This document shows, piece by piece, positions 1 through 60,700 of a stretch of DNA of 64,000 nucleotides. The DNA comes from Macrostomum lignano (lineage: Eukaryota): the NCBI GenBank assembly GCA_002269645.1, contig NIVC01000109.1, positions 310,001-374,000 on the forward strand. Direction: 5' to 3'. The stretch's first letter is position 1. Each line of letters begins with the position of its first letter. Below the pieces are notes generated by a model that was not told the origin of the DNA, did not search any database, and was given only the letters and a program-made list of their open reading frames with translations. The translations under genes and the position numbers were made by a program.

Positions 1-2842
1 AATGTACACCTGAATAACCCAAAACGTTTATTTTATTATCTAACTTTACAATGCAACCCAAATTTTAAGTCTTTTAAGACGCTTAAAGTACTTACCACCA
101 CCTCTCAGACGCAAAACCACGCTCCGCCATTGCGCCTGAACTACGCCATCAGCATCGCCAAGGTCCGTCAGGATGCCGACCTCACTGCACTCGGGCAAGT
201 TGAAGCGTCGGACATGCTCCCCAGATGGGCGGGCATCGGGGTTGATGACGACCCTGGCGCTCTGCAGCTGCGGGTCGCTGCGCAGCAAGTCGACTGCGGA
301 CTTCAGGCTGCGCACGTAGCTGTTGCAATCATGCAGAACAGCTTGCAGCTCCTGCAGCAAAGTGTCGTTGAGACCTGCTGTCCATTGCAGTCTGTTCTGC
401 AGCTCTTGGTCCACAAAGAAGACCTGGCAGAACCTGGCCGCATCCCCTGGGTCCGGCAACAGGCTGCCGATCCGATGGTGCATCTGACCATGGAGGATGA
501 AGCTGGGGTTCCACCCGGGCTGTTCACGCTGCCTGGAACCAAGCGAGGTCATATGGAGCGCGCCGTTATACTTCCTGATGTCCTTCAGGAACTGCGAGCT
601 GAACGGATGCTCGCCAGTCAGCAGCCGCTTCAGAACATCAGGCGGGTCTCGGCGCTGCTCCAGGACGGTCTGTCAGTGTTAGAAAAAAAACTGAAGTAGC
701 TTTTATGCGGAGACGGGCTGCAGCAAATCATGCAATTGTCGATGACTCCATAGGTGGTCAGAGGCTTGATACAGTACAGGAGGCATAAATGAGGCAGCAA
801 TTCAAGTAAACTAAAACAATAAATATCAACTCACCTTTCCAGCATGGCAGCAAATGCTAGCTGGCTCGTCCGTCCAGCGTAGCGCGCTGCAGTGAGGGCA
901 TTGGCGGTCCATGCGACCGAGAACATGTGGCTGGTGTGCCAGCTCCAGCAGCCTGTGGTAATGAAATAGAGTATTTTAATCAGGAATTCTTGAAAATCCA
1001 GATCCACATGCAGAAAATTTAATAGTCTCAGATTATGAGCTACCACACATAAGAATAGCAGAATAAAATTTTATATAGGAACCCTACCTGTCTCGGCGCC
1101 ACTCTGCCTGTGCGTGTACACGGCGGTCGTGGTCCTCAGCGGACTCAGCCGCGCGATACTGGACCTGGCGCTGCCGCTGCGCCTCCAGGCGATGCAGATG
1201 GACTGCCTCCTCCTCGGCTTCACGGCTTTCGACAGCACGCAGCCGGTCGTGGTCGAGCCGATTCTGGCGTTCCACCTCGCCTTCAGCATCCCGGCTTTCA
1301 GCTAAGCGGAGTCGATTGCACTCAAGGCGATGCTGGCGCTGCACTTCGCCTTCGGCCTCACGGCTTCCGGCTGTGCGCAGTCGATTGCACTCAAGGCGAT
1401 GCTGGCGCTGCACTTCGCTTCGGCCTCACGGCTTCCGGCTGTGCGCATTCGATTGGACTCGAGGCGATTCTGGCGCTCCACTTCGCCCTCGGCTCTCTCG
1501 GCCCTATGCTGCCGCTCCCGCTCAACGCGCGCTGCACGCTCATCGGGTGTCTCCGACGCCCTGCGCTTCTTGGCATCCGATGCAGCGCGTGTAGAGCGGG
1601 AAAGGCTTCCTCGACCACGTTTTGGCATTATTATAGTAAGCAAATAGGGAATAGCAAATGGGCAAAAAAGCAAAAAGCAAATGACAAAAAAATAAGGAAA
1701 TAGCTCAATCGGAATATTAGACAAATTCTATTCTGATATCGAAGGAAATGTAACTGAATTGGAATTTCGCGCTATTAAGTAAGAGTTCAGTGTAAGTAAA
1801 GGCCCAGTGTACGTGATTTTAGTCAAAAAAATAACTTGAGCCTCCACCCCCCCCCCCCGACTCCTCAAATACTGAAATTACTCCAAATGATAGCTGGCTT
1901 AAATGTGCGAACGCAATCCCCCAATTTTATCTGAAAGTTAAAAATAAGGTTACGCAATCTTAATAAACCCTCCAATACACAGCGACCGACCCCCCTCCAA
2001 TGCAGAGCGGCAGTAAGAAATTGAACTCCTCAACTTTATCTATTACGTATCGCAAAAATGAGTACAATCTTTGCAGAAAGTTAAAAGCATGGTTATCGTT
2101 TTCTGAATGCTGTGCTTTAAGTTTTCATTTTTAAAGCAAACAACTTACATCTTTGAAACCAGCGTTGCAAGATCTTTCCAGCAATATAAGTCTCTCCTCT
2201 CAAATTTTAAAAGTTGAGGAACACTTTGCGTTTAAAACTTCCCAGTTTAAAGCATTGAATTTTTGTGCGTACATTCACTGCCTTTTCCACTGAGAGGCTC
2301 GCAAGTTTATTCATTGAATTTCACAGTTCAACACAGGGTTTCCTAATGAAAGGCGCTGATAATAAAACCAATTGAATCTCGACCCAGTAGCCATATCGTT
2401 GCGCTTCACACCCACCACCCCACGAAATTCATCAATTAAGCCAAATTGCAGTTGACTAATATCGATCCGTAGCAATTGCCGGTGAGCCAGGGTCCAATTG
2501 TACGCATGCAGCCACTTAGAACGCCCCATCCCCCCACTGGAGAGTAAATGCACTGGCGACATAGGAAAAAGTTGTGGCGTAATCACTCAAAATTCATGCA
2601 AATTTTCAGCTCCGAGCAGAAAGAGGGTACAATTAAGATTATCAAAGGTCAGAATTGCCGTTTTCTGCTTTTTTAGGGATCTTAAAATGTAAAAATAAAA
2701 GATTAAAACAGCCTAAAGCCATCCTCGGAAAATTTGCAGTTTTCCCACATAAGTTTCAACGCTGACTTGCAAGTATTCTAGGAGGAGTTATCCAACAAAC
2801 ACACACACACACAGACAAACAACGCACCAGTTTTAGTATTAA
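1..2842 (-). mobile_element. Autonomous-type Helitron, 5' portion (runs off the window start)
   Basis: Contains RepHel N-terminal exons. Segment ~1900-2842 is homologous to the 5' part of the adjacent array units and begins (minus strand) TTAATACTAAAAC at 2842, followed by a (TG)n microsatellite, like those units. Confidence 0.8.
96..1628 (-). CDS. Helitron Rep/helicase (RepHel) N-terminal region, spliced: exons 1628-1088, 952-835, 669-96, continuing beyond the window
   Basis: MPKRGRGSLSRSTRAASDAKKRRASETPDERAAR (STPR-like charged repeats), then LGRMDRQCPHCSALRWTDEPASICCHAGK (Helitron CxxC..CC motif), then QFLKDIRKYNGALHMTSLG...HGQMHHRIGSLLP...RFNLPECSEV. GT-AG introns have matching phases. 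There is one 1-bp frameshift near 1418 in a GG run of the N-terminal repeat (mutation or read error). Confidence 0.9.
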
Positions 2843-22630: not shown

Positions 22631-22744
22631 AGTAGCTAGTGCAAATTTTACCTTTTAATGCAAGATTAATGCAATAATTGCTTTCTCAGGTTGTGCAACA
22701 ATTCACGTCTCAGCGAGCGCAATAATCAGCTTCTCAGCTAGTAC

Positions 22745-23010
22745 AATAATCCTTGGCTTATCAAGTGCAATAATCCTTGACTTATCAAGTGCAATAATCC
22801 TTGGTTTGTCAAGTGCAATAATCCTTGGCTTATCAAGTGCAATAATATTTGGCTTATCAAGTGCAATCATCCTTGGTTTATCAAGTGCAATAATCCTTGG
22901 CTTATCAAGTGCAATAATTGTTGGTTTATTAAAAGCAATAATCCTTGGTTTATCAAGCGCAGTAATCTTTGGTTTATCAAGTGCAAAAATTCTTGGTTTA
23001 TCTAGCGCCA
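22745..23010. repeat. 24-bp minisatellite ATCAAGTGCAATAATCCTTGGTTT
   Basis: Tandem periodicity; larger copy at 31395-32300. Confidence 0.9.
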
Positions 23011-23087
23011 TAATCCAGGTCTTTTTAATTACTCCTTTAATAAAAGCTTTCTATAAAAAATTGATGCTACTTAGATTATTTTATATA

Positions 23088-23150: not shown

Positions 23151-24250
23151 CTCATTGAATTTATAAATGAATTTGTAGCACTTATAATTCACGCACTCAC
23201 GCCAAGGAGATGCACTCACGCCAAGTCAATTCAGTAAAAGTTACACGAAGCAGTTATGACATAATCAATTTCTTAGGCAAGTCAGTACCAGTCTATTAAA
23301 GTCAGCAATGTGGTTACGCAATATAAATCAAGTTATTGTGCTATGCTTCCACACTGCGTTTTTAATACTGTGACGTAATTCAATTCAGTGTCAATATTCA
23401 GCCAGTTCACAGACGATAAATAAAAAGCCTATTGTGATGCAATCTATTTCAGAATCAGAATTCAACCAGTCAGTTTTTTCTCTAGCATTCTTACAATGCA
23501 TTTCAAGTCGAAAGAGCTGCTTGACCTTTGCAAAAAAGCATGTTTTTCGAATATTTAATCCCTTTAGCATCAAGCAATTTCTTAGCCACGATGCATGTAC
23601 CGTCACGGAAAAATTTCTGATTGTTCGATCAGAAATTTTTCCGTGAAAGTCCAGAGATTGTGCAAGTTCGAAGAAAATCGGTTGAGCCGTTTTTTGCTAA
23701 AATTGATCATGCACACACACACAGACAACACAAACTCCTTCTTCACTTTTAAAAATCACATTATTCATGTAAAATTGTCACGGACAATGTTATTTGCTAT
23801 GAATCTCTTTTTTTCTAAAATTAACAAACAAACAACAAAATATAACTATCACAAAGATAAAAGACATTCCCCCTAAATAGAAAATTTTCCCAAGACAGCA
23901 AGCATCCCTCCAGATAGCAAGCACCCCCTCCAAAAGTAAGCAACTGCAGATAGCAAGCATCCCCTAATACTTGTAGCAAGCATCCGCCCAGATAGCAAGC
24001 ATCCACCCAGATAGCAAGCATCTGAAGATAGCAAGCATCCTGCACATAGCAAGCACCCCCTCCAGATACCCTCATATTGTAGAAGCATCGACCCAGACAG
24101 CGAGCATCCCCCAGATAGCAAGCGTCCCGCAGATAGCAAGCATCCCCCAAATATTGTAGAAGCATCCACCCAGAAAGAAAGCATCCTGCAGTTAGCAAGA
24201 ACCACTAAATGGCAAGAATCCCTAGATAGAAAGAATCCCATACATGTAAC

Positions 24251-24959
24251 TGTTGTGCCCGGGTGCACTTGCACCGATGAGCAATCTCTGGCTCTCGGTC
24301 AAGTGCGCCCGGCACTGCACTCCCACCCCTCCTGGCCGTGTGCCTGCGCCACCCCCCCCCCATTCTGTTTGTGTCAACCCCCCATTTCTGCCTGCGCTAA
24401 CCCCCCCCCCCCAGTTGTGTATCAGCTCTTATGCTCTACCCCCTTTTCTTTATGCGTACCCAGCCGGATTGGCTGGTCTGGCCCCTCTCTCCCCCTTTTG
24501 TTAGCCCTTGTCAATTGGTGATTGGCCAATAAGTTGGGTTTTGATAATGCTGTCTGGCGTGAGACCCTAGGGCTTACGCCAGACAGTCCAAATAAATAGA
24601 GAATTGCTGGCGGTGGGCAGGGCGAGCGCGCTTGTGGACGCCTGACACTAGACTACTCTTCAGAACCTACAAACTTCAACAGCAAGAATCTCAGTTCTAC
24701 AAATTGACGAATTCGCTGCCTTGCCCATCGTCGAGCAGATTGGAAATCAAAGTAAGACCTGCGCCTGCATTCATTACTCATTTGGGCCTCGTGCGAAGTG
24801 GGTACTGTACACCTCAGGGACGGACTGACTACCTTACCTCGACGCGACCCCACGCTCAGTTACGGAGTCAGTCCGGTCAGTGGGCTGACGCCATCTCCAG
24901 GCTCGATCACTGCAGAGCGTTCTTAGGGGGCTGTTTCGATCACGTGTAGTGACACAACA
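24251..24959 (+). repeat. 5' LTR
   Basis: TGTTGTGCCC...GACACAACA; matches 30685-31391. Confidence 0.95.
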
Positions 24960-24960
24960 C

Positions 24961-24978
24961 TGGTGCCGTGACCAGGAT
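24961..24978 (+). promoter_or_regulatory. Primer-binding site, tRNA-His type
   Basis: TGGTGCCGTGACCAGGAT begins 1 nt after the LTR and is complementary to a ...GUCACGGCACCA tRNA 3' end. Confidence 0.85.
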
Positions 24979-25126
24979 TTAGGAGTTTAGTTTACTGTAA
25001 CCTGGGTTGTACGTTATTTGTTAGCAGCTTGCGCGCCTCTTAGATCTATGCACTGTTAGTCTGTCTCCTTCTCTATCCCAGTCAATCTCTTAGTCTTTTC
25101 TTCCTGAAGTTGTCTTTCGAATCCCG

Positions 25127-26095
25127 ATGGCCAACGTTGACGACCTCATCAATGCGCTTACAGCTAGAGTGCAGAATAATTTGAACGTAGGGCAAAGAGT
25201 GCCCCGACCATCCAAGTTTGTGCTGAGTCAGGATTTTGCTCTGTGGATGCAGCAGTTTACAGCGTATTGTGAGGCTGCAGAAATCCCCGAGGAAGATAGG
25301 AAGCAGCACCTACTTAGTATGATGGACTTCAACTCAGCTTACCGAGCCATTGCCAACCTTGAGTTACCGGACGATCTAGAGTTTGACGATTTTGTTGAGC
25401 GCCTTTCACAGCGGTTTAATCAGCATCACACCCCACAGGACAGTAAGATCGAACTGAGGGGTCGGGACCAGAAGAAGGATGAATCTGTGGAAGATTATGC
25501 CGACGCTCTTCGAGAAATTGTCCGCCGGGCCTACCCAAACCTGCCGGTAGAACAGAGAGATGAGCTAGCAAGAGACCGGTTCCTGCTAGGTGCCAGAATC
25601 GCCGATAGAATTCGTGAACACTTGCTATTGGAGGAACCGGGTACCCTCGACGCAGCTTGTAGGCGTGTAAGACAGGGTATGGCATCCCTCCGCACAGCTC
25701 AATCGAGCACTGAGAAACCTTGGCCCTCAGCGAACGTATCCGCAAGTAACACGCAAGATGAGGCAGTCAGGCTCCGCGAAGAGCTGAAAGAACTGAGGGC
25801 GGAGCTGCAAGTCCTGAAGGCTGGATCGGGAACTGGAGTCCGCTATCATAAGCACCCTAATCCCCAACCTGCCCAGGCTGCAGCACCAGCTCAGAGAACT
25901 TTCCAGTGTGGTCGCTGCCTCGAGACCACCCACACGACCCAGCAATGCAGAAATCCTATAGTTTGCAATTACTGCAACCGGTCCGGTCACAAACGGGCTA
26001 GGTGTTTTAAACTGCAGAGAGACCAGCAGCAGACGGGAAACGGTCAGGGGACCTGGAGGCAGGGCCGCCCAGGCACCCACCCGAACCAGCAGTAG
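25127..26095 (+). CDS. gag: Gypsy Gag (capsid + two CCHC-type zinc knuckles)
   Basis: 322 aa; QKKDESVEDYADALREIVRRAYP capsid motif; CGRCLETTHTTQQC and CNYCNRSGHKRARC. Confidence 0.93.
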   Translation: MANVDDLINALTARVQNNLNVGQRVPRPSKFVLSQDFALWMQQFTAYCEAAEIPEEDRKQHLLSMMDFNSAYRAIANLELPDDLEFDDFVERLSQRFNQHHTPQDSKIELRGRDQKKDESVEDYADALREIVRRAYPNLPVEQRDELARDRFLLGARIADRIREHLLLEEPGTLDAACRRVRQGMASLRTAQSSTEKPWPSANVSASNTQDEAVRLREELKELRAELQVLKAGSGTGVRYHKHPNPQPAQAAAPAQRTFQCGRCLETTHTTQQCRNPIVCNYCNRSGHKRARCFKLQRDQQQTGNGQGTWRQGRPGTHPNQQ

Positions 26096-29000
26096 AGGCC
26101 CAACCCAGCGCACCGAGCCAACCCGCACAAGGTACAGAACTTGGTTTTGTTGATGTGATATTTGAAGGCAGAACAAGTAGTATGGCATGTTTGCTAGATT
26201 CCGGCTCGAGTATCTCACTGTTAAGTGAAGCCGCGTGGAAGAGGAACTCGAATCGAGCCGTGTTGAAGCCAAGCTACATAGGAGAGAGTATTCAAGTTGC
26301 AAATGGCGATGTCATAAATGTGCTGGGTGAGTGCGTTGGGGAATTTTCGATTGGCTCGCATAGAATTTGCCTTACCTTTGTCGTCGTCTCACACATACTG
26401 CATCACTGCATCCTTGGTGCAGATTTTTTCCGTTGCCAAGCAGCCAAATTGGATTTTGCGAACCTTCAGATCGTCACTTCAGTAGGAACTTTTCCTTTTC
26501 GTATGACTTCTGAGCGACCCATCCTCTGCCGGATAGTCATTTCGAAATCGGAAACAGTTCCTGCAAATCGGTCTCAAATCATTCGAGCTAAGCTGAGTCG
26601 GAGAGGAGTGAAGGAATTTCGGTTCTTAGGAATGGCAGAGACCCGCTCCCAGACTGAAGGCCACGTGATGCTGGCTAGGTCAGTTGTCGTACCCTCTGCT
26701 GACGGTTCCGTCCCTGTCAAGATCACCAATGTGTCGGGAGAACCTGTAGTACTAACAAAAGGGAAGCAGCTTGGCTGGTTCTCGCCCGTCCATGACAGCC
26801 AACCAAATCACGATCAAGAACCCAAAGCACAAGTTAACCGGGTTTCTCTCGACAAAGACTGGGATCCTGTAAAGCATCTGGGCAGTTGGGACTCGCCGGA
26901 CTTGTCCGAAGACCAGCAGGTGTCGTTCATAAAGTTGATCCGTCAGAACAGAGATTTCTTCGCCAAGGACGATAGCGAGCTGGGTTCAACGGACCAGGCA
27001 ATGCATACCATAGACACCGGGGACGCCAGGCCAACTAGAGAACCACCACGCCGCATCCCACCGCACATAAGGCCAGAAATCGATAAAGAAATTGACAGGC
27101 TAATAGACTGCGGTAGGATCTACGAGTGTCAATCCCCGTGGGTCAGCCCGGTCGTACCTGTGCGGAAGAAGGACGGATCCATCAGGCTGTGCCTGGATTA
27201 TCGCCGACTAAATGAAGTAACCAATCCTGACCCATTTCCGCCGCCGCGAATGGATGAAACCTTAGAAGCACTTGCAGGAAATGCTATTTTTTCAACTCTA
27301 GACTTGGCTTCAGGCTATCACCAGTGCCCGCAAGATCCTAAAGATCAACTTAAGACGGCATTCGTAGTTCCAAATAGAGGTCAGTTCGCCTGGCGATATG
27401 TGAGTTTTGGGCTAAGAAATGCCCCTGCGACTTTCGTCAAGCTGATGAACCTTGTTATGGCTGGTCTGACATGGAGAGAGTGTCTTGTATATTTTGACGA
27501 TATAATAGTTTTTTCAAAGTCCTACGAAGAGCATTTTGAGCGGCTCCAGCATGTTTTCGATCGCTTACGAACTGCTGGGATCCGCTTGAAAGCCAAGAAA
27601 TGTCATTTTCTGTCCAAGGAAGCCAAGTTCTTAGGGCACGTCGTATCGTCTGAAGGTATTGCGACAGATCCTGCGAAGACAGAAGAAATTCGAAACTGGC
27701 CCACACCCAAGAATATAAAAGAACTGCAGTCATTTTTGGGCCTCAGCTCTTACTACAGAAATTTCGTGAATGACTTCTCAATAAAGGCAGCCGCGTTGTT
27801 CAAGCTCATGCGCAAGGACTCACAGTATATTTGGGGCCCAGAGCAACAGCAGGCGTTTTCCGAACTCAAGCAATCGCTAACATCAGCGGAGATCATGGCC
27901 TATCCAGACTTTTCCGAAGGAGCTGGACCGTTTGTGCTGGACACCGACGCCAGCTCGAAGATTGGGATCGGTGCAGTCTTGTCGCAATGCCAACCCGATG
28001 GGTCAGAGCGCGTCATTGCCTATGGATCCAGGTCGCTAGCAGATTGTGAAAGGAACTACTGCACTACCAGACTTGAACTCCTAGCGATAGTACACTTCGT
28101 AAAGCTGTACAAGTACTATTTGCTGGGAAGGAAATTTAAGATACGGACAGACCATAGCGCTCTTTCGTGGCTGACAAGTCTTAAGGACGTCGAGGGGCAA
28201 TGTGCTAGATGGCTTGAGACGCTGCAGCGTTACGACTTTGAGATCTCGCACAGGAAGGGAATTTTCCATCAGAATGCGGACAGTCTGTCTCGTAAAGTTC
28301 GAAAGCATTGGGCCCAAGAGTCGTGCCCTTCCTGTAACAGTTCGCCACAAGCACCTGAACAGGTGAACGCTGTGTTAGCATCACCTCTCAGCGTCAAGTG
28401 CATCAGAGAGGCTCAGAGAATTGACCCGGCTCTAAAACGAGTAAGGCAGCTCCTGGAAGGTGAAGCGCTGCAAAATGAGCCGATCAGTAGTTTAGTCGAG
28501 AGAGAGATCTGGGCCCATAGGACTCGAATAGTCGTAGAAGATGGGCTACTGCTCCTGACAGTGCCGGAGAGCTCACAGAGAATCCTCCTACCGAGTTCCC
28601 TGTTTGAGGAAGCCGCCAAAATTCTTCATGATGGCGTCAGTGGATGCCACCTCGGAGTTAAGAAGACTCAAGGAAAGTTTAAACAACGCTTTTGGTGGCC
28701 TGGTCTGTCTCGTAGAGTTGAAGAGTTCTGCCGAACATGTCTAGTGTGCTCAAAGTGCAAACCATCGCCAAGAAGCAGGGCACCACTGCAACCCATCCCG
28801 AGCTCATTTCCGTTCCAAAGAATCATGTGCGACATCATTGGTCCTTTGCCGAAGTCCAAGCATGGGTCGAGATTTGTTTTGACAATCCAAGACGCATTCA
28901 GTAAATGGCCGTGTGCAATCCCGTTAACCAATCAGCGTGCCAAGACAGTAGCCCGTGCAATCTTCACGCACTGGATTTCATCATTCGGTTGTCCACAGGA

Positions 29001-29931
29001 GATAGTCACTGATCAGGGATCGAACTTTGAGTCAGCATTGATGAAGAACCTTTGTTCTCTGCTAGACATCCGCAAGTGTCGAACCACTCCGTATCATCCG
29101 ATGGCGGATGGGCAAGCAGAAAGCTTTAATAGGACTCTAAAGCACATGTTAACGTGTCAGTTAGAGCAGGAGGACAAGGATTGGGAAGACTGCATTGCGC
29201 CCGGTTTGCTAGCCTATCGTTCTAGCGTGCATAGAGGCACAGGCTACACTCCGCACTACATTCTGTTTGGTAGGGAGATGCAGCTCCCGATCGACATTGA
29301 GAATCCGACTGAGAGGGTGCCAGAGAGTTTCTCCAAGTTCACTCGTCGACTGGCTGAAGACCTTCAGCAAGCACACGAGGCCGTGAGGGAGAATCTCAGA
29401 ACCTATCAGAGGAAGCAAAAGAAGCTTTATGACAGCCAAGCTCGTGGCACTCAGATCAATGAAGGTGATCTTGTTCTAGAATACGATCCCTTCATTAAAC
29501 CGAATGAAATCCCGAAGTTCCACCGCTATTGAAAAGGCCCGGCCAAAGTCCTGGAAAAATTTTCCGATGTCAATTACAGAATCCTGCACGATGGTGCGCG
29601 AAGGCCTAGAGTAGTCCATTTCAACAACCTAAGGAAAATCGATGCCAGCTCTAGGTTCCACGTCCCTGCCCAGAGGAGGACTCAAGCAGCGGCGGGAATC
29701 AGGTCACGTGAGCGATATTCCCGCCCGGAAGCTCCTGATCCCCCGATGCCGGTATTTGACTCTGAGCAGAACAGTGACGCTGAATTGGAACCAGAGCCCA
29801 TTTGGGCACAGCGCGTCACACACCATCAGCCTCTTGTAGCCGCTCCTCCCGAGCAAGAATTGAATCGTCGTTCTGTTCGTGCGAATCGAGGAGTTGCACC
29901 ACGTCGATTCGGAGACCCAATCCTCTATTAA
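26011..29931 (+). CDS. pol: Gypsy Pol (protease, RT, RNase H, integrase) with premature TGA at 29530-29532
   Basis: LLDSGSSIS, LDLASGYHQ, YFDDII, DTDASSKIGIGAVL, HHCC zinc finger and D..D..E core. The same frame continues past RY*KGPAKV...VNYRI...VHFNNLRK to RRSVRANRGVAPRRFGDPILY* at 29931. Confidence 0.95.
26035..26041 (+). promoter_or_regulatory. -1 programmed ribosomal frameshift slippery site G GGA AAC
   Basis: X XXY YYZ heptamer in the gag frame. The pol frame (-1) is open from 26011. Downstream CCTGG...CCAGG stem-loop potential. Confidence 0.75.
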
Positions 29932-30041
29932 TCTGTACCAATCTGTCTATCAATCGCTCTGGAACGTTTAATTCTCACCCTTCTCATCGCGCCTCCAAGT
30001 TGCTGAGTACAGTACGGGTTCGTATTTTCATGCAGTTGTAA

Positions 30042-30586
30042 TTGTATTTTGGGCAAGGATGGGCAAGGGTAGTGGCTGTCGGCGAAGCCGAGTTGGACGT
30101 CCAGAATACTGCGATCAGTGTGGAGCAACAAATGGCAGCCCTGGAGCTACAGGTTCGGCTAGCCAAGAAACGGGATCTACCCCTCCTGGTTCGTTTGCGA
30201 GAGCGTAGACGTAGTCCAGTCGAACCCGGTGGCTCGGCCTGGCACCAGTTCTTACGGTTGCTAGTGGCGTCGGACTTTGCAAACTGTCGCATTCTAGTTG
30301 TCGAATCTTCCGACTGGCCCAAAGACACTCTCAACCTGTACCTAGCGTCGTTGCCAAGACTGAAATTTGAAGTCACGCCCGGGTCGTCAACAGCCGATGG
30401 CATGCCCGACGCGTCGCAGCGATACCTTCCGACCGGCTGCTAGTCGCTTCGTCAGCGCCATTCGCGGGAAACCCGGGCAAGCCGACTGATGTCCGGAAGG
30501 CGGCGGCCTGGCTTGCTGAGGAGCGAAGCGACGGGGCTCTACCTGGTCGACTGGCTGCGGCTGCGCGTGAACTTTATAATATTTAA
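30042..30586 (+). CDS. ORF3 of the Gypsy element: TatD-like (amidohydrolase-fold) protein with degenerate catalytic residues, one frameshift near 30400
   Basis: VVAVGEAELD..QQMAALELQVRLAKKRDLPLLVRLRE resembles TatD VVAIGEIGLD..Q..F..QL.LA...LP.IIH.R. A second frame gives VAAIPSDRLLVASSAPF..KPTDVRKAAAWLAEER..AARELYNI*, resembling IPLDRLLLETDAPY...NA..LY. No ATG at the start. Confidence 0.65.
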
Positions 30587-30670
30587 CTGTGTGTAAAATG
30601 CTAGCTGACAATAACAAATGCTCATGTCGTCATTGCACAGTCCTTCGTCTATGGTTTGAACCCTCTTTTC

Positions 30671-30684
30671 GTGGAGGGGGAGGG
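30671..30684 (+). promoter_or_regulatory. Polypurine tract
   Basis: GTGGAGGGGGAGGG abutting the 3' LTR. Confidence 0.85.
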
Positions 30685-31391
30685 TGCTGTGCCCGGGTGC
30701 ACTTGCACCGATGAGCAATCTCTGGCTCTCGGTCAAGTGCGCCCGGCACTGCACTCCCACCCCTCCTGGCCGTGTGCCTGCGCCACCCCCCCCATTCTGT
30801 TTGTGTCAACCCCCCCATTTCTGCCTGCGCTAACCCCCCCCCCCAGTTGTGTATCAGCTCTTATGCTCTACCCCCTTTTCTTTATGCGTACCCAGCCGGA
30901 TTGGCTGGTCTGGCCCCTCTCTCCCCCTTTTGTTAGCCCTTGTCAATTGGTGATTGGCCAATAAGTTGGGTTTTGATAATGCTGTCTGGCGTGAGACCCT
31001 AGGGCTTACGCCAGACAGTCCAAATAAATAGAGAATTGCTGGCGGTGGGCAGGGCGAGCGCGCTTGTGGACGCCTGACACTAGACTACTCTTCAGAACCT
31101 ACAAACTTCAACAGCAAGAATCTCAGTTCTACAAATTGACGAATTCGCTGCCTTGCCCATCGTCGAGCAGATTGGAAATCAAAGTAAGACCTGCGCCTGC
31201 ATTCATTACTCATTTGGGCCTCGTGCGAAGTGGGTACTGTACACCTCAGGGACGGACTGACTACCTTACCTCGACGCGACCCCACGCTCAGTTACGGAGT
31301 CAGTCCGGTCAGTGGGCTGACGCCATCTCCAGGCTCGATCACTGCAGAGCGTTCTTAGGGGGCTGTTTCGATCACGTGTAGTGACACAACA
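30685..31391 (+). repeat. 3' LTR
   Basis: TGCTGTGCCC...GACACAACA; by eye differs from the 5' LTR at base 3 and in C-run lengths. Confidence 0.95.
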
Positions 31392-31394
31392 TAA

Positions 31395-32300
31395 CCAAGC
31401 TTATCAAGCGCAGTAATCCTTGGTTTATCAAGCGTAGTAATCCTTGGTCTATCAAGTGCAATAATTCTTGGTTTATCAAGTGCAGTAAGTCTTGGTTTAT
31501 CAAGTGCAGAAATCTTTGGCTTATCAAGCAAAGTAATCCGTGGCATATCAAGTGCAGAAATCCTTGGTTTATCAAGCGCAGTAATCTTAAGTCTATCAAG
31601 TGCAGAAATCCTTGGTTTATCAAGTTCAATAATCCTAGGCTTATCAAGTGCAATAATCATTGGTTTATCAAACGCAGTAATCCTAGGCTTATCAACTTAA
31701 ATAATCATTGGCTTATCAAGTGCAATAATCCTTGGTTTATCAAGTGCATTAATCCTTGGTTTATCAAGTTCAATAATCCTAGGCTTATCAGTGCAATAAT
31801 CCTTGGTTTATCAAGTGCAATAATCCTTGGTTTATCAAGCGCAGTAATCCTTGGCTTATCAAGTGAAATAATTCTTGGTTTAGCAAGTGCAGTAATCCTT
31901 GGTTTATAAAGTGCAATAATCCTTGGCTTATCAAGTGCAATAATCCTTGGCTTATCAAGTGCAATAATCCTTGGTTTATCAAGTGCAATAATCCTTGGTT
32001 TATTAAGTGCAATAATGTTTGGGTTATCAAGTGCAATAATCCTTGGTTTGTCAAGTGCAATAATCCTTGGCTTATCAAGTGCAATAATCTTTGGGTTATC
32101 AAGGTCAATAATCCTTGGTTTATCAAGTCCAGAAATCTTTGGCTTAACAAGAAAATTAATCCGTGGCTTATCAAGCGCAGTAATCCTTGGTTTATCAAGT
32201 GCAATAATCCTTGGTTTATCAAGTGCAATAATCCTTGGCTTATCAAATGCAATAATCCTTGGTTTATTAAGGGCAGTAATCCTTGGTTTAGCAGGCGCCA
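31395..32300. repeat. 24-bp minisatellite ATCAAGTGCAATAATCCTTGGTTT (expanded copy)
   Basis: Tandem periodicity; source of the ALDKPRII pseudo-ORFs. Confidence 0.92.
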
Positions 32301-33044
32301 TAATCCAGGTCTTTTTAGTTAGTCCTGTAAAATATGTTTTGAATAAAAAAATGTATACTACTTTCATTTTTTAATACACTACTAAGATTCGAACCCAGGT
32401 CGCTGCATCAGCAGCACAGTCTGTTCACGTGTAGGCTAGCTCTCAAGATGAATTTGTAGCACTTATAATTCAACACTCACACCAAGTCAATTGAGTAAAA
32501 GTCACACGAAGCAGTTATAACATAATCAATTTCTTAGGCAAACCAGTATCAGTGTCTATTGAAGTTAGCAATGTGGTTACGTAATATAAATTAAGTAATA
32601 TATATTGTGCTATGCTTCCACACTGCGTTTTCAATACTGTGACGTAATTCAATTCAGTGTCAAAATTCAGCCAGTACACAGACGATAAATAAAAAGCCTA
32701 TTGTGATGATGCAATCTATTTCAGAATCAGAATTCAACCAGTCAGTTTTTTCTCTTGCATTCTTACAATGCATTTCAATGCTTGACCTTTGCAAAAAGCA
32801 TGTTTTTCGAATATTTAATCCCTTTAGCATTGAGCAATTTCTTAGCCACGATGCATGTACCGTCACGGAAAAATTTCTGATCGAACAGTGCAAGTTTGAA
32901 GAAAATTGGTTGAGCCATTTTTGCTAAAGTCGATCACACACACACACACACACACAGACAGACAAATCGGTTGAGCCATTCGGGAGATAATCGATTGCGT
33001 ACAAACAAACAAACAAGCAAACAACTGATTTTTAGTATATTGGA

Positions 33045-38415: not shown

Positions 38416-38699
38416 CTGTAAATTTAGCCAAGTGGAATTTTAAACAAGTTACGGCTTGCTTGTTTTCTAGGTAGGCGAACTGCTGCCATGGATGAATTTT
38501 CGCCGCCTGTACGTCAGTGCATTGGCACACAAAATGCAGTCTTGAAGTTACAGGCACCAAGAGCGCAGAGTACCTGCAGTCTTTGAACCGCATGTACTCA
38601 CGAGCATAACTGACAACATTATGTCACATCTCAGCATGTATGAAACAGCTCTTCACCTTCTTTTGGTAAAAAAATTGAAAGTAATTTATCGCTGCGCTC

Positions 38700-39360
38700 C
38701 TGGCGTAAGACTAACAGAATCCGGAAGCTCGAATCCCCAACCTATTATAAGCAAGCCGACGGGGCCGCTGAGCGCACGGTGCAGACGGTGAAGCGCGCAC
38801 TCAAAGCCTGGAACATCAAGACTATTAAAGCTGATTTTATCAAATACCAGGTACTTGTTAGGGATTCTCTTCCATTATCACATCTCATCTACATCAACAG
38901 CCCCTGTGGCAAGAGTTTCGCCGAACTGGTGTTTGTCAGACAGTTGCGACTCCCAGTCGTCTCACAATATGAACAAGGAGAGAAGGTCTTGTATCAACCT
39001 ATTAGCTCGAAACTTCCCAATCAGATTGATTTACTGATGAACCAAAGCCGCATCACCGCTCGGGTTCTCGATGGCGAATCGCTACTCCTAGCAAACACCA
39101 ACCAGCTCCCCCATATCTATTGGAGGATGATGATGATGGAAATGTCCCGGCCGCTGACGTCGAGCCACGTGGACCGGAAAACGAGACATATGCCGGTGAT
39201 TCACGTGATCCGGAACCAGTTGCGGTTGCGCAACCACCGCGACGTAGCAGCCGACAGAAGAGAGCCCCTACGAGTACTCGCTTCCTTGATTCCTGCAGGC
39301 GCTCAACTACTGTCGACTGTCTGTCTACTCTCCCCAATGCGATACCAGCATCCTCCCCTC
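38700..39360 (+). pseudogene. Degenerate LTR-retrotransposon integrase C-terminal fragment
   Basis: SPTYYKQADGAAERTVQTVKRALKAW...GKSFAELVFVRQLRLP and a PPRRSSRQKRAP tail; frameshifted. Confidence 0.8.
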
Positions 39361-47021: not shown

Positions 47022-48073
47022 CTGCAAGTTTGGCTTGAGTTGATGAATTTAAACAAAGACGATTTCACACTTTTCACAGAAACGCATGCATAATGGTCAA
47101 ATTGGCAAAATCTTTATATGCTCTAGGGTGGATAAACATTCCCTTTTAAATGAGATGAATTATTATAGAGTCGGTAAAACCTGCTCTCTGAAGTCATTAA
47201 TTTAAGATTAATGTAAAGATTTAGGGGGTGTCAGTTTGGCAGAAAATCTCTATTTACACTTCTGCCCTGCCCGCATTCAATTGAGTACAGTACTGTAGCT
47301 AAAATAAAATGTAGATTCACGGGAAAACCGTGTGATTGCCGCGGACTTTCCTTCTAGCTTTAAAAGTTGTTGAGATTGATACGTTCGTAGGCTCGTATTC
47401 AACTTAAATGTGGATAATTTCTGTTGTTCGATTGTGTGACAGACCGGATTCCAAGATCAAAGTACTTCGGCGTCACTTAAGTATCACTGATAAGCGCTTA
47501 GTATCAATTAAGCACCACCGATGAGATTTTAGCGCCATGGCAGTGCCACCATCGCAATGCCCATGCAGCCCCTACTTGCTGCACTGTCCAATTTGAGTCA
47601 CTTACAAATCCGGGCACCAGTTGGTTTGGCTGCGAAGAAGCTAGGGTCTCACGAAGCTGGACTGGACGAAAAAGCATGATTTTCAATTTCAACTTGCTGC
47701 ACTTTTATTCACTTAACTCGTATCAGTCCGTTCTATCGCGTCTGTCGTACTGTACACCAGTTTCAGGCATACAAGATCTTATGAATATACCGCACAATCT
47801 CTCTGGGGGCTAAACCGTGGCCAGTCTGTGGGAATTCTGCAAAGGTCTGCACACAATAGCAAGACTTATAGTACACTCCACTTGTCTTCATTATGAATTT
47901 AATATTCATTAAATGCGCAGGCCGAGAGAGTACAGCATTTTATATTTTATAAGTATTATTTGGGGTCAAGTAATTAACAGTAGAACTACCAAGAGGGGGG
48001 AATTCCCGCCTCCCCTGACAATTTTTTTCTGCGCCGTATTGGAGCAACGCTCGCACAGGGAATTTAAGAAAAC

Positions 48074-48717
48074 GGGCTCAATTTTTGCCGCGCACCTTCT
48101 CAAACAAGAATCAAGTCACCAGCCCTCCGAACCGTCGAGATGTTCGACGATTCTGCCAGAAGGTCGGATTTTTCCCAAAAGCGCCAGTGTATTCAGTACA
48201 CCCTCCAGTGCAGTCTTGCCAATCGTTCAAATATCATCAGCACGTCGACCACATGCGTCTGCGTCAGCTCTGACTAATGAAAAATCTGATGCTGATTTCT
48301 CGAGTTTCGCTGATCAAGCCTCGACAGTGGGCAAGCCTCAATTGCTCGACATTCTCGAGCACTCTCGAGCATTCCGTCATCACCCGGACGCCGTCGGCAC
48401 CTTCAACAGATTACACCAGGCGACTATGGACATGCAGTTGATTCAGTTTATGGACATGGAGCCACCTGCTGAAGGTCCAGAAGCTCCGTCTGGGTGAAGG
48501 CCAGTGATGAACAAAGCCGGAGCTGATGCAAGCACATGTGGTCGACGTGCTGATGAAACTTGGAGGCTTGGCAAGGCTGCACTGAGGCTCAGTGCTGATT
48601 GGCACACAGGGCTAAACTGAATACACTGGCAGAATCGTCGAATACACCCACGGTCTGGGGGGCTGGCGACTTACATGTAATTCTTGTTTGAGAAGGTGCG
48701 CAACAAAAATTTAGCCC
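48074..48717. repeat. Degenerate foldback element with ~200-bp imperfect inverted arms
   Basis: 48074-~48270 (GGGCTCAATTTTTGCCGCGCACCTTCTCAAACAAGAAT...CATCAGCACGTCGACCACATG) matches the reverse complement of ~48520-48717. No TSD seen. Confidence 0.7.
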
Positions 48718-48894
48718 ATGTTGCATTCCAGCTTGTGTCATGCCTTTGATGAAGTTTTCCTTTTGGTTGAACAGAACCATTGAAGCTGTAGTAAAATTGA
48801 AATGGCGTATGCTTGACTTGGCTTATTTTAGCTTGTATTGGTAAACTATTATTACTTAATCTTTCCTCGTTAAGATTTTCCAAAGAATCATCAT

Positions 48895-50810: not shown

Positions 50811-53800
50811 TCATGCTCCCCAATTTATTCTAATCCCACATGCCGCATCACCTGCAGAGCCGACATTGCCGCACTCTTTGCCAAAGAAGACAATTTCCAA
50901 ATCTTCGCTTTCGAACCCGTTGCTTCGAACTGTCAACCGGCATTTCAGCCGGTCATTTCTGGTGATGGAAGTCATGTCCGGCGTTCTCACAACCAGCAGA
51001 TGCTGCAATTAATCATTTAGAAACGATGAAGGTCATATTATGATCAGACAGCTTATCCGCAAAATAAAACTTGCCTTTTTCAGTTCTACAATCGAACACG
51101 AACGAACAAAGTTACGAAGTGAACCCGTCGATTCAGCAGATGCAGATCCGGCACTTGATTGGCCGTGTAATGTTTGCAGATCAACTTTTATGTCGGTTTT
51201 GTTGATTCCTGAAGTATTTTTACAGTTACCATGTATAAATCTGTTGGTTGGTGCCTGTGGAGTGAGGTTGGTGTCGGAGGAGTGAGGTTGGTGTGGGTGG
51301 AGTGAGGTGGGTGTCGGTAGAGTGAGGTGGGTGTCGGTGGAGTGAGGTTGGTGTCGGTGGAGTGAGGTGGGTGTCGGTGGAGTGAGGTTGGTTTCAGTGG
51401 AGTGAGGTGGGTGTCGGTAGAGTGAGGTGGGTGCAGGTGTCTTTAGACTGAGATGGATGCCTTTGGGGAAAGCAGACGTCTGTAGTAAAGTAACCAATCA
51501 ATAAATCAATCTACCTGTCGTTGGCGTCTTGGTCAGAATGGCCACCAGACTGCCACCAGTCAGGGGCACCTCTGCCGGATTCAAGCGCTCAACCGCGATG
51601 GATTTCTTCTGTTCTGAATGGTGAATTTTTCAATTAATAGGTAATAAATTAAAACCAGATATTTTGTAAAAACTTTGAAATTTCCCGTAAGTCTTAGCAT
51701 ATCCTTGAACATAGATTCCGAGTTCTACATTCCGAATCCCAGATAATAAACTCCAGATCCCAAAGCTCACATATAGGAACACAGATCCCGAATCCCAGAT
51801 CCTAGATCCTGAATCCCAGATCCCGAATCCCAGATCCCGAATCCCAGATCCCGAATCCCAGATCTCGAATCCCAGATCTCGAATCCCAGATCCCGAACCC
51901 AGATATTGAATCCAACATCCTGAGTCCAAAACTCGAATCCGAGATTCATAATCCCAGATTCTGAATCCCAGATCCTGAATCCCAGATTCCGAATCCCAGA
52001 TCCTGAATCCCAGATCCTGAATCCCAGACCCTGAATCCCAGACCCTGAATCCCAGATCCTGAATCCCAGACCCTGAATCCCAGATTCTGAATCCCAGATC
52101 CCGAATCCCAGATTCCGAATCCCAGATCCTGAATCCCAGATCCTGAATCCCAGACCCTGAATCCCAGATCCTGAATCCCAGACCCTGAATCCCAGATTCT
52201 GAATCCCAGATCCCGAATCCCAGATTCCGAATCCCAGATCCTGAATCCCAGATCCTGAATCCCAGATCCCGAATCCCAGACCCAGAATCCCTGTTCCCGA
52301 ATCACAGATCCTGAATCCCAGATCTCGATTCCCAGATCCCGAAACCAAGATCCCAAATCCCGGATCCCAAATCCAATACTCTGAGTCCAAAACTCGAATC
52401 CGAGATTTCGAATCCCGGATCCAACATTTCACATCTTGAATCCCAGGTTTTAAAACAAAAGATCCCGATCCGAAATCCCGAATTCCAGATCCCAAATCTA
52501 GAGATCCCGAATCTTACATAATGAGTCCTAGACTTCGAATTATACGAGCGTAGATACCGAGTCCCAGATCTGCCAAATTCCAAATCCCAAATCAGTTAAA
52601 TTTAACCCCAGACCAGCAATGAGTCATACACCATCTTGAACTTACTGTCATCATTAATAGGATCACTGTACACCGTGCTCTGCCACCAGTGCATGCCTCT
52701 GGTGTCCGTGAATTGCAATGAAATTGCCAGCCGAATCGAACCCATGCTGCGGCTGGTGTATTCCACTTTGGAACTTTCCACTGCTGCACACAAAGTCAAA
52801 TGCGAGTTTTTAATATAGTTACAAAGGTGCAACATTACTTAAAGTAGCACAATAATAATAGTGCTAATAGACTCACCATCAGGCAGACTGGGGACATTTG
52901 CGCGCCTCAGCTCCATGGCTCTCTCAATGTCCATCTGACTTTTTCTGGTCACGCAGATCACGGCCAGGCGGTTGAAGCTGCATTGGTGTTGGAGGGAAGG
53001 GGGTCTTGCGAATGCGATATGTAGCTGATGGCTATGATAGTGCTTTGAGATTGGCTTTTAGATTGGCTTTGAGATTGGCTTCGAGATTGGCTTTGAGATT
53101 GGCTTTGAGATTGGCTTCGGGATTGGCTTTGTGATTGGCTTTGAGATTGGCTTTGAGATTGGCTTTGAGATTGGCTTTGAGATTGGCTTTGAGATTGACT
53201 TTGAGATTGGCTTTGAGATTGTTTTTGGGATTGGCTTTGAGATTGGCTTTGAGATTGGCTTTGAGATTGGCTTTGAGATTGGCTTTGAGATTGGCTTTGA
53301 GATTGGCTTTGAGATTGGTTTTGAGATTGGCTTTGAGATTGGCTTTGAGATTGGCTTTGAGATTGGCTTTGACATTGGCTTTGAGATTGGCTTTGAGATT
53401 GGTTTTGAGATTGGCTTTGAGATTGACTTTGAGATTGGCTTTGAGATTGGCTTTGAGATTGGCTTTGAGATTGGCTTTGAGATTGGCTTTGAGATTGGCT
53501 TTGAGATTGCCTTTGAGATTGGTTTTGAGATTGGCTTTGAGATTGGCTTTGAGATTGGCTTTGAGATTGGCTTTGAGATTGGCTTTGAGATTCGCTTTGA
53601 GATTGGCTTTGAGATTGGCTTTGAGATTGGCTTTGAGATTGGCTTTGAGATTGGCTTTGAGATTCGCTTTGAGATTCGCTGTGAGATTGGCTTTGAGATT
53701 GGCTTTGAGATTGGCTTTGAGATTGGCTTTGAGATTGGCTTTGAGATTGGCTTTGAGATTGGTTTTGAGATTGGCTTTGAGATTGGCTTTGAGATTGGCT

Positions 53801-55966
53801 TTGAGATTAGCTTTGAGATTGGCTTTGAGATTGGCTTTGAGATTGGCTTTGACATTGGCTTTGAGATTGGCTTTGAGATTGGCTTTGAGATTGGCTTTGA
53901 GATTGGCTTTGAGATTGGTTTTGAGATTGGCTTTGAGATTGACTTTGAGATTGGCTTTGAGATTGGCTTTGAGATTGGCTTTGAGATTGGCTTTGAGATT
54001 GGCTTTGAGATTGCCTTTGAGATTGGTTTTGAGATTGGCTTTGAGATTGGCTTTGAGATTGGCTTTGAGATTGGCTTTGAGATTGGCTGTGAGATTGGCT
54101 TTGAGATTGGCTTTGAGATTGGCTTTGAGATTGGCTTTGAGATTGGCTTTGAGATTGGCTTTGAGATTGGTTTTGAGATTGGCTTTGAGATTGGCTTTGA
54201 GATTGGCTTTGAGATTAGCTTTGAGATTGGCTTTGAGATTGGCTTTGAGATTGGCTTTGAGATTGGCTTTGACATTGGCTTTGAGATTGGCTTTGAGATT
54301 GGTTTTGAGATTGGCTTTGAGATTGACTTTGAGATTGGCTTTGACCCCTTTGAGATTGGCTTTGAGATTGGCTTTGAGATTGGCTTTGAGATTGCCTTTG
54401 AGATTGGTTTTGAGATTGGCTTTGAGATTGGCTTTGAGATTGGCTTTGAGATTGGCTTTGTGATTGGCTTTGAGATTGGCTGTGAGATTGGCTTTGAGAT
54501 TGGCTTTGAGATTGGCTTTGAGATTGGCTTTGAGATTGACTTTGAGATTGGCTTTGAAATTGGCTTTGAGATTGGCTTTGAGATTGGCTTTGAGATTGGC
54601 TTTGAGATTGGCTGTGAGATTAGCTTTGAGATTGGCTTTGAGATTGGCTTTGTGATTGGCTTTGAGATTGGCTGTGAGATTGGCTTTGAGATTGGCTGTG
54701 AGATTGGCTTTGAGATTGGCTGTGAGATTGGCTTTGAGATTGGCTTTGAGATTGGCTGTGAGATTGGCTTTGAGATTGGCTGTGAGATTGGCTTTGAGAT
54801 TGGCTGTGAGATTGGTTTTGAGATTGGCTGTGAGATTGGCTTTGAGATTGGTTTTGAGATTGGCTTCGGGATTGGCTTTGAGATTGGCTTTAACATTGGC
54901 TTTGAGATTGGCTTTGAGATTGGCTTTGAGATTGGCTTTGAGATTGGCTTTGAGATTGGCTTTGAGATTGGCTTTGAGATTGGCTTTGAGATTGGCTTTG
55001 TGATTGGCTTTGAGATTGGCTTTGAGATTGGCTTTGAGATTGACTTTGAGATTGGCTTTGAGATTGGCTTTGAGATTGACTTTGAGATTGGCTTTGAGAT
55101 TGGCTTTGAGATTGGCTTTAACATTGGCTTTGAGATTGGCTTCGGGATTGGCTTTGAGATTGGCTTTGAGATTGGCTTTGAGATTGGCTATAACATTGGC
55201 TTTAAGATTGGCTTTGAGATTGGCTTTGAGATTGGCTTTGAGATTGGCTTCGGGATTGGCTTTGAGATTGGCTTTGAGATTGGCTTTGAGATTGGCTTTG
55301 AGATTGGCTTTGACATTGGCTTTGAGATTGGCTTTGAGATTGGCTTTGAGATTGGCTTTGAGATTGGCTTTGAGATTGGCTTTGAGATGATTGGCTTTGA
55401 GATGATTGGCTTTGAGATTAGCTTTGAGATGATTGGCTTTGAGATTGCCTTTGAGATTAGCTTTGAGATTGGCTTTGAGATTGGCTTTGAGATTGGCTTT
55501 GAAATTGGCTTAGTGAATTCATCTCAGAGTAATACGAGGTCAATGAAGCTCACGTGATCTCCCATTCACTGCCCTTAAAAGCTGAGTCCACGGTCTTCTT
55601 CAGCTGGAAATATCCGTTGCTGCAGTGGTCTCCGTGCAGGTAGTACGGATGAGGAGCCTTCTCCTCGGCGCTCACGGTGCACACAGTCAGCTGCAGCTGC
55701 GAGTGCACAGCTGGGTCGATGCCGCTGACGCGAACTCTCACGAAGCTCTTGTTGCCATCGGTGGAGCTCCTGCCGAGCAGCAGGCCGCCAACTCTGCCGC
55801 TGTCCTTCTCGATCTCCGACTCGTAGCGAAATCGGTAGAACCGAGCCGGCTGCTCCTCGATGGTCAGCGAGGGCGGTTGCGGCAGCGGCTGAGGCTCATG
55901 CAGAACCAGGATCCGAGGCTGCTCTGGCAGCAGAACGTCCCTGCCAATCAACTGGGTTGTCGTCGC
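50811..55966 (-). CDS. NF-kB/Rel-like gene copy D (RHD+IPT): exons 55966-55554, 52977-52877, 52783-52646, 51613-51515, 51208-51075, 51002-~50811; termini unresolved
   Basis: RFRYESE, FNRLAVICVTRK, IRLAISLQF..STVYSDPINDD, RLNPAEVPLTGG, HLLVVRTPD..SNGFESE. Phases are consistent if one GC donor (51074) is used. Confidence 0.82.
51258..51435. repeat. 20-bp intronic minisatellite GAGTGAGGTGGGTGTCGGTG
   Basis: Tandem periodicity inside copy D intron. Confidence 0.9.
51790..52330. repeat. 14-bp intronic minisatellite GAATCCCAGATCCT
   Basis: Tandem periodicity inside copy D intron. Confidence 0.9.
53045..55512. repeat. 12-bp satellite (GAGATTGGCTTT)n, ~200 copies, in the intron after the copy D RHD exon
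   Basis: Exact periodicity; recurring variant units. Confidence 0.97.
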
Positions 55967-60135: not shown

Positions 60136-60700
60136 CGAAGGTGGGAGTTCCACCTATGTTGCAAAACTCAGTATTGGTGGTGCAGATGTAAGCAAGGAGT
60201 TCCTCGCCTCTGCTGTTGGAGGTATTACTGCCCCAGTGGGTGTGGTGGGCGTTGGCGTCGCCCGCCACCAACAGCTCGAACCTGCGGTCAGAGCAGTAGT
60301 CTACGAGGGAGGTGAGGTTGGGTGGAACCGCGGGGCCATCGCCAGGGATATAAATCGAGGCGATGATGACTGTGCGGTTGGTGATTATGTGGTTGGATTA
60401 AATGACACCGAGGTCTCTGTCAGAGAGGTCCGGTCTGTGCCAAGCTTTGAGGTGGTTAGATACGAAAATGGCTGCTCTGGGGTTTTGAGGGTCCTGAAAA
60501 CAGTCAAAACCAGCAGGAATATTCGGAATCTTACCTTTCTTCGTCCAGGGCTCCTGAAGTAGAATGATGCCCGGTTTCACGAAGTTTGCCACCTGCATCA
60601 GGTTGGTAGAGGCCGCGATGCAGTGGTGGAAGTTAAGCTGCAGGATGTCCACTCCGGGGATTCCACGAGTGGTCCGCGCAGCTTCCTGCCGGCTCAGGGC
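60125..60700 (-). pseudogene. LINE ORF2 apurinic-like endonuclease (APE) domain, in-frame TAA at 60398-60400, truncated
   Basis: ILQLNFHH, LLQEPW, PRAAIFV, ASIYIP, VAGDANAHHTHWGS, NIGGTPTF. Confidence 0.9.

Follow-up and report, generated by a model that had tools for sequence, protein, structure and literature searches.

A Ty3/Gypsy element of Macrostomum lignano carries the remnant of a third open reading frame that, in fuller copies, joins a J-domain to a degenerate TatD barrel

LTR retrotransposons with a captured third open reading frame other than env are already known as a kind. The bdelloid rotifer elements Juno and Vesta carry beyond pol an ORF3 of cellular-enzyme origin, either a DEDDy exonuclease or a GDSL esterase, with family-specific gains and losses and no proven function; the catalytic residues of these ORF3s are intact, and their evolution does not depart clearly from neutrality (PMC5408684). 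The flatworm ORF3 described here is likewise a non-env frame beyond pol but differs in having a TatD fold with its ligands lost, in being fused behind a J-domain and in showing clear selection. With the TatD DNase family PF01026 (TATDN1/2/3, TatD/YcfH/YjjV; PMC10085689, as far as its available text describes it) it shares the whole TIM barrel, the motif order and the bridging GE Glu. It departs from that family in the replaced HxH or GxN, GxHP, HxR, beta-6 His and ETD motifs, in its long branch and in being borne by a retrotransposon.

Class C J-domain proteins and polyomavirus T antigens have an N-terminal J-domain with an HPD motif, an acidic stretch and a client-binding part. ORF3 resembles them in its J-domain with HPD, its acidic stretch followed by a further part, and its mobile-element origin; it differs from T antigens in that no LxCxE motif is seen by eye, in being encoded by an LTR element and in the loss of HPD in one family (family C below). 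The chromodomain of chromoviruses sits at the integrase end. In the one sister family that likewise has a chromodomain, it lies within ORF3, between the J and helical domains and not at the integrase end (compare the chromodomain-bearing Gypsy elements in the available part of PMC6338049).

A search of the full-text literature, a scope distinct from Repbase, Dfam and GyDB, found no TatD or J-domain ORF3 in LTR elements. Neither a TatD nor a DnaJ term occurs in the main text, as available, of PMC6338049, PMC5718144, PMC5408684, PMC8775202 and PMC12801592, and the five supplements of PMC12801592 hold no TatD, DnaJ only in host gene rows, and no match to an 18-nt primer-binding-site string. An ORF3 combining a J-domain with a degenerate TatD thus appears to be undescribed, and it would add two domain types to the short list of non-env LTR ORF3s, none of which has a proven function.

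The host element and its truncated ORF3

The window analysed here is a 64,000-nucleotide stretch of the M. lignano genome. It contains a 7,141-bp element (24251-31391) with the ORF3 remnant inside. The element has two TG...CA LTRs, a primer-binding site, a polypurine tract and a target-site duplication, and a Pfam scan gives the gene order gag, then pol as PR-RT-RH-IN, all of which place it among the Ty3/Gypsy LTR retrotransposons. Its features, all on the + strand, are:

24247..24250 (left) and 31392-31395 (right), +, 4-bp target-site duplication, from sequence comparison
24251..24959, +, 5' LTR, 99.3% identical to the 3' LTR over 710 columns
near 24590 and near 24752, +, TATA-like box and donor-like GTAAG (candidate ORF3 donor) of the 5' LTR
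24961..24978, +, primer-binding site, common to families B, C and others
25127..26095, +, gag (PNMA / Retrotrans_gag / zinc knuckle), open, from the ORF list and Pfam
26011..29931, +, pol (protease, RT, RNase H, integrase), in the -1 frame relative to gag
30025..30035, +, splice-acceptor-like site, 16 nt upstream of the ORF3 ATG in fuller copies
30050..30059, +, deletion junction in ORF3, from comparison with fuller copies
30059..30586, +, ORF3 remnant, C-terminal two thirds of a degenerate TatD barrel, frameshifted near 30376
30673..30684, +, polypurine tract
30685..31391, +, 3' LTR

Seven other copies of the element are also flanked by 4-bp duplications, one with a mismatch. The primer-binding site, which we take to be tRNA-His-like, has 47 exact matches in the genome, against 0 for the reversed control. 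A single premature stop at 29530-29532 interrupts pol in the window.

The original prediction, made from the letters of the window, was that a TatD-like gene, read in two adjacent frames, sits where an env gene would be expected. Both frames (ORFs 30042-30443 and 30371-30586) and all the peptides quoted from them are in place, between the pol stop and the polypurine tract, and both match PF01026 TatD only, at E-values of 3e-4 and 0.18 that lie under the 27-bit cut-off. This 180-codon stretch is not the gene, however, but the start-less tail of a larger ORF3. A DNA search of the genome returned 29 matches: collinearity with the window, and thus the deleted form, is seen at five loci and at one more that a contig end cuts short, whereas six others match as two pieces separated by more than 1.1 kb. 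Where the window has 14 nt, the longest copy has 1,221, a net loss of 1,207 nt at 30050/30059. What was lost starts at the ORF3 start codon: a J-domain with HPD, the acidic linker and helical domain that follow it, and the barrel's first third. The junction holds about 8 nt of filler that repeats adjacent bases, and the deletion is common to a young subfamily. A spliced-out intron is ruled out as the source of the gap by these filler bases and by the missing GT-AG ends at the junction.

The frameshift, predicted near 30400, is actually near 30376, where the window is one base shorter than all seven sister copies. A contig of 5,807 nt from a public run matches window positions 24930-30736 with 3 differences and no gap, so that the frameshift is probably not an assembly error, even if the run is possibly not independent. 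In three of the deleted copies a frame of 181 codons is open. Reading on from the acceptor in the remnant, one meets an out-of-frame ATG first, and an in-frame one not before 30132. Four distinct insertion flanks among five loci, together with LTRs that are 99.3-99.9% identical, show that the deleted form has spread recently although it lacks a whole ORF3. Within the remnant, 6 of 13 and 5 of 10 changes are synonymous (P 0.14-0.21), and the window's own ORF3 copy is probably non-functional. At two further loci (L064 and L069; G000:C471 and C513), a longer ORF3 and the 3' LTR are kept with no gag or pol upstream in the fetched stretch, and similarity to the window ends at position 29813.

Arrays of a 24-bp tandem repeat lie on both sides of the element (22740-23016 and 31401-32306), arrays of an 18-bp family lie nearby as well, and a long 12-bp array is found near 52900-55400. 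Positions 48069-48722 hold nested inverted repeats of about 650 bp that are MITE-like. Judged by eye, the frames at 49-672 (-), 38644-39360 (+) and 62936-63817 (+) look like pieces of a Helitron helicase, an integrase and a DIRS-type recombinase, and 60697-62193 (-) is a 499-codon open frame. None of the six window frames scanned had a Pfam match at E 0.01.

Full-length ORF3 and its TatD barrel

Further genomic copies include open family C frames and fuller family A and B copies. In the fuller copies of the same genome, ORF3 has about 560-590 aa and consists of a J-domain (DnaJ), an acidic linker, a helical domain and a whole TatD barrel. Protein searches and 20 fetched stretches define four TatD families that are 33-70% identical: A, that of the window; B, about 70% identical to A; D, 56-66% and damaged; and C, 33-40%. 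In each of these families ORF3 follows pol or directly precedes the 3' LTR. None of the eight fuller copies found for families A and B is unbroken. Family C is represented by 18 loci at ≥95% to the query, 10 of them with an open frame of 571-575 codons; among 11 loci examined, nine different 3' flanks were found and two gave none, and because the assembly holds some duplicates, the loci overcount insertions. The J-domain matches PF00226 at E 7e-13 and 8e-17 in families A and B, with HPD present, whereas family C has lost HPD and scores below the cut-off (E 0.003). No copy was found that combines HPD with an unbroken TatD frame.

UniRef entries near-identical to family C are from M. lignano itself and are chimeric gene models, so that ORF3 is now absorbed into the annotation of host genes (P0001, P0003, P0004). 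Relatives elsewhere did not turn up in a word search that used the family B frame as query, and an alignment search found two. A profile search of 1.84 billion sequences, with a profile that omitted the J-domain and covers TatD-bearing ORF3 only, gave 373 matches at E 0.001; with 10 of 150 read individually and 132 placed in a tree, the only ORF3-like ones were P0003 and P0004, which are host gene models, and P0005. P0005, which clusters with family C in the tree, is another TatD of the degenerate kind, and its identity to anything in this genome is at most 52%. IMG/VR held no ORF3 relatives, the Atlas gave no usable match to the whole ORF3 protein, and the helical domain gave weak matches only, mostly to designed helical proteins and one-member Pfam families. 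No env family appeared in the ORF3 Pfam scans, the domains found being soluble folds.

The resemblance to TatD, which had been read from a few motifs, holds for the fuller frames by profile and by structure. All four TatD-containing family A/B frames score 28.8-35.3 bits against PF01026 (cut-off 27 bits); family C, at 21.6-22.4 bits, is under the cut-off. AlphaFold models of the family B frame (pLDDT 60.6) and of the whole family C protein (pLDDT 58.5) match the barrel as a whole, and solved TatDs were the best Foldseek matches (E 4e-7). Superposed on solved TatDs, the two models reach Z 20.6 (rmsd 2.8, 225 aligned) and Z 21.8 (rmsd 2.9, 229 aligned), respectively; TatD entries score Z 18-22 and other amidohydrolases ≤16.

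To compare active sites we used an alignment of 139 rows, made up of 132 of 156 proteins, five ORF3 frames and two host exons; short or motif-less proteins were dropped, plus four by name. Among its 131 canonical TatD rows, the GE Glu is present in 131, the HxR His in 131, the beta-6 His in 128, the ETD Glu in 123 and the Asp in 124. The bridging Glu is also kept in all six degenerate rows (five ORF3 frames and P0005), where it is the sole ligand retained throughout. The predicted loss of the His residues and of the ETD Asp is fixed in every family, with three further comparisons agreeing that no His is present at the GxHP, HxR and strand-6 positions, and the ETD Glu is lost alongside the Asp. 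The N-terminal HxH/(G/A)xN motif is absent, reading HAF in A and B and KAY/KTY in C, so that the first His survives in A and B only and the second is replaced. The GxHP His has become Arg/Lys and the HxR His Arg/Gln, two phosphate-side positions where His gives way to Arg/Lys/Gln; other residues also stand in place of the strand-6 His and of both ETD acids. An upstream segment, TFNSHPSH, had been suggested as the HP motif, but fuller copies have their true ATG about 80 nt downstream of it, and the GxHP equivalent of ORF3 is LGL[R/K]A, in the part deleted from the window. All six rows share a second Glu, which coincides with the beta-6 His or lies no more than two residues from it: MAFFT places it directly on the His, hhalign one or two places later. 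Altogether, six or seven of the eight site residues have changed together.

In the available text on human enzymes, E112A was the only change to impair TATDN1 strongly, single changes of H149, H174, E220 and D222 having little effect, while D218A lowered TATDN3 activity 30-fold (PMC10085689). TATDN2 is described, in the part of PMC10711561 available, as needing both E593 and E705, and mutation of E705, which we infer to be the equivalent of the ETD Glu, abolished its activity. Because no family has kept the ETD Glu/Asp or more than a little of the metal-binding His set, the ORF3 TatD is likely to be a pseudo-nuclease, and we consider catalytic inactivity quite probable on these sequence grounds. 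The ligand losses behind the original prediction of a dead enzyme therefore stand, and "dead" is likely rather than proven, since the kept Glu is the residue whose loss abolishes TATDN1 activity. ORF3 can be regarded as a conserved candidate pseudo-enzyme of the TatD family.

The host has TATDN1-like and TATDN3-like genes of its own, which contain introns and keep the canonical motifs, and in the tree the ORF3 TatD groups with neither host exon. It attaches beside a group of 12 rows that we label TATDN2-like from their motifs (support 91/80); a bacterial profile scores equally well, with ORF3 profile scores of E 1e-21 for bacterial TatD against 2e-19 and 3e-16. Four proteins (P0027, P0107, P0139, P0157) are long eukaryote-like TatDs from short contigs; they begin with a Ser/Pro-rich stretch, carry Cys/His motifs of zinc-finger type and keep the catalytic residues. 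For the idea that P0027, P0107 and P0139 might be LTR-borne donors, a metagenome scan gave only distant TatDs of about 30% identity, with a pol match at 0 of 80 loci.

Sister families, selection and likely expression route of ORF3

An integrase search, followed up in 20 stretches, revealed among the matches listed eight loci, belonging to five families, whose ORF3 of 270-344 aa has a J-domain but no TatD. The remaining stretches comprised, among those same matches, four with TatD, five with neither domain and three that were uninformative (one interrupted by an insertion, one with a gap, one unclear). All six J-only ORF3s scanned pass the DnaJ cut-off with HPD (E 1e-12 to 5e-18). One of these families (L236:4291-5274, G000:C652) has an ORF3 composed of a J-domain with HPD, an acidic linker, a chromodomain (PF00385, E 1.4e-12) and a helical domain. 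Four further families with J and helical domains and no TatD were seen at L223-L227, L229 and L231 (G000:C87, C3853, C27, C438, C2110, C1549, C108). One J region used as query gave 68 genome matches, most of them in these families, with about 20 each in those of L231 and L225. The J-domain, the PP motif that follows it and the helical domain align across the J-only families and families A, B and C, and the helical domain does so in 7 of 7 rows from both ORF3 types.

In trees of RT-RNase H and of integrase, the TatD families form one branch (support 97 and 99) apart from the J-only families. These are midpoint-rooted FastTree trees of 23 rows each, with one locus left out of each, built from this genome's elements only. 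Since five sister families carry a J and helical ORF3 without TatD, it is likely that TatD was added to an older J-protein ORF3. The simplest reading would have one gain of the J and helical ORF3, with TatD added in one branch and a chromodomain in another, HPD lost in C and ORF3 lost at least twice; given the midpoint rooting, this order is tentative. Such a history would make this one clade a case of stepwise domain gain and loss. An ORF3-less family (L218, L219, L221, L228) nests beside family C in the trees; it has about 1.2 kb between pol and the polypurine tract with no J or TatD match, only an unassigned frame of up to 262 codons. Compared with window positions 25000-29900, mosaic families were seen as well (L063, L068, L065, L234): family B has an RT with about 95% DNA identity to the window and an integrase with about 75%, and L065 has the reverse identity pattern, which suggests recombination between Gypsy families.

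Selection was assessed with pairwise Nei-Gojobori estimates on natural open frames, as had been proposed, and ORF3 is under purifying selection, with dN/dS of 0.08-0.3. Between families A and B, dN/dS is 0.13 for TatD (bootstrap 0.07-0.21; 240 codons, dS 1.8) and 0.08 for the J region, values that are rough because dS is near saturation. Pairs within family C give 0.27-0.32 for ORF3 versus 0.14 for pol, and 0.21-0.33 for the J region, on few changes; under neutrality 0.74-0.85 would be expected, given the transition bias measured in non-coding parts. For the whole family C ORF3, 35 of 68 and 30 of 58 changes are synonymous versus 29-32% expected (P 1e-4 to 1.5e-3), and for the TatD part alone the result is marginal (10 of 20, P 0.04-0.07).

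Expression of ORF3 from a spliced RNA had been suggested from an acceptor-like site at 30025-30035. The site is present, and similar sites lie ≤20 nt from the ATG in 5 of 7 families versus 146 of 942 other ATGs (P 0.0014) and ≤1 nt from it in 3 of 7 versus 12 of 942 (P 7e-5), by a filter of our own that was set after the sites had been seen. A UniRef gene model of family C, whose evidence base is not stated, joins the LTR donor to the ORF3 acceptor. This enrichment and the gene model make a spliced subgenomic ORF3 message likely, as a matter of inference and not of observation. Among the contigs listed for four runs each on the window and family C elements, none carried a joint into the ORF3 acceptor, contigs being a form in which rare variants drop out; single contigs run unbroken across the acceptor in X6 and X1.

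Possible roles of ORF3

Our preferred reading, tentative and held at a little under an even chance, is that the whole ORF3 is an adaptor that brings host Hsp70 to a nuclear nucleic-acid or chromatin target, with TatD as a predicted non-cutting binder, and that it acts in trans. The protein would be made from a spliced subgenomic RNA, and its HPD-bearing J-domains would stimulate Hsp70. TatD and the chromodomain would be alternative targeting modules, the former for nucleic-acid ends or RNA:DNA hybrids and the latter for methylated histone, and ORF3 with Hsp70 might remodel a nuclear complex on element cDNA or chromatin, aiding integration or loosening silencing. Were the protein to act in trans, start-less copies such as that of the window could keep moving. 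The need of class II TatDs for the acids lost here (TATDN3 D218A, TATDN2 E705) counts in favour of a non-cutting TatD. Several observations count against the adaptor. The chief one is that HPD and an unbroken TatD frame were not met with in one and the same copy: family C, the only family with intact J and TatD frames, is without HPD, so that stimulation of Hsp70 would fail in the very family whose TatD is best preserved. An element can do without ORF3 in cis, given a mobile deleted subfamily and a nested family without J or TatD match; the grounds for a nuclear target are a single chromodomain family and a basic patch; and the mean pLDDT of the models is 58-61.

Hsp70 and Hsp40 assist the particles of retroelements and reverse-transcribing viruses, which favours a cytoplasmic version of the adaptor, in which Hsp70 recruited by ORF3 would help the Gag particle to fold, assemble or open, with TatD binding genomic RNA or cDNA ends inside. 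The J and TatD evidence would fit it equally and trans action would suit the deleted copies, but it leaves unexplained the chromodomain of one family and why family C conserves the J fold even though HPD is gone, and we think it unlikely. A different proposal is that TatD is a rewired active nuclease using the kept Glu, the second Glu and Arg/Lys side chains to trim RNA or cDNA ends, much as end trimming has been proposed for the rotifer DEDDy ORF3s (PMC5408684, available part). The whole barrel is retained, both the GE Glu and the second Glu are conserved in 6 of 6 rows, and E112A alone was strongly damaging in TATDN1 (PMC10085689, in the text available). Set against this, six or seven of the eight site residues are altered together, the substitutes are not the same from family to family (A/T, S/A/V/G), which is what relaxed constraint on catalytic positions would produce, and class II enzymes, by the available accounts, need the ETD acids (PMC10085689, PMC10711561); we regard such a nuclease as quite unlikely.

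A decoy or dominant-negative role of the TatD part, the decoy having been raised with the original prediction, shielding element nucleic acid from host TatD nucleases or other defence, would find its targets in the host's intact TATDN1-like and TATDN3-like genes. From what is available of the two papers, human TATDN2 degrades RNA in hybrids (PMC10711561) and catalytically dead DEDD proteins retain RNA binding (PMC5408684). Five sister families nevertheless share the rest of ORF3 without TatD, and the ORF3 TatD groups with neither host exon, which leaves this role very unlikely in our view. That ORF3 is a functionless captured passenger, or a chance resemblance, is barely credible for the full-length protein: it is lost or broken in many copies and families, but a fold match of Z >20, dN/dS of 0.08-0.13 between families (dS near-saturated) and 10 of 18 open family C frames largely refute the idea. 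For the window remnant alone, with no start codon and no detectable selection, the passenger reading may hold.

The nuclear adaptor could be one instance of something wider, a flatworm Gypsy clade with its own modular J-protein, in which a J and helical core carries swappable readers (dead TatD, chromodomain) and aims Hsp70 at silencing or integration complexes. This extension is speculative and somewhat unlikely; if true, it would be a chaperone-based counter-defence and the retrotransposon counterpart of viral J-domains, and it may reach into other animals, since P0005 is only 51% identical to anything in this genome. Natural contrasts are at hand in HPD kept or lost, in TatD, chromodomain or neither, and in ORF3 whole or deleted. 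LTR elements of M. lignano have already been tied to the heat-shock response, according to the available text of PMC12801592, and with such elements in a laboratory flatworm host the recruitment of host chaperones by a retrotransposon is directly testable. A pattern search of four LTRs for heat-shock elements found none in three and a single 8-mer in one.
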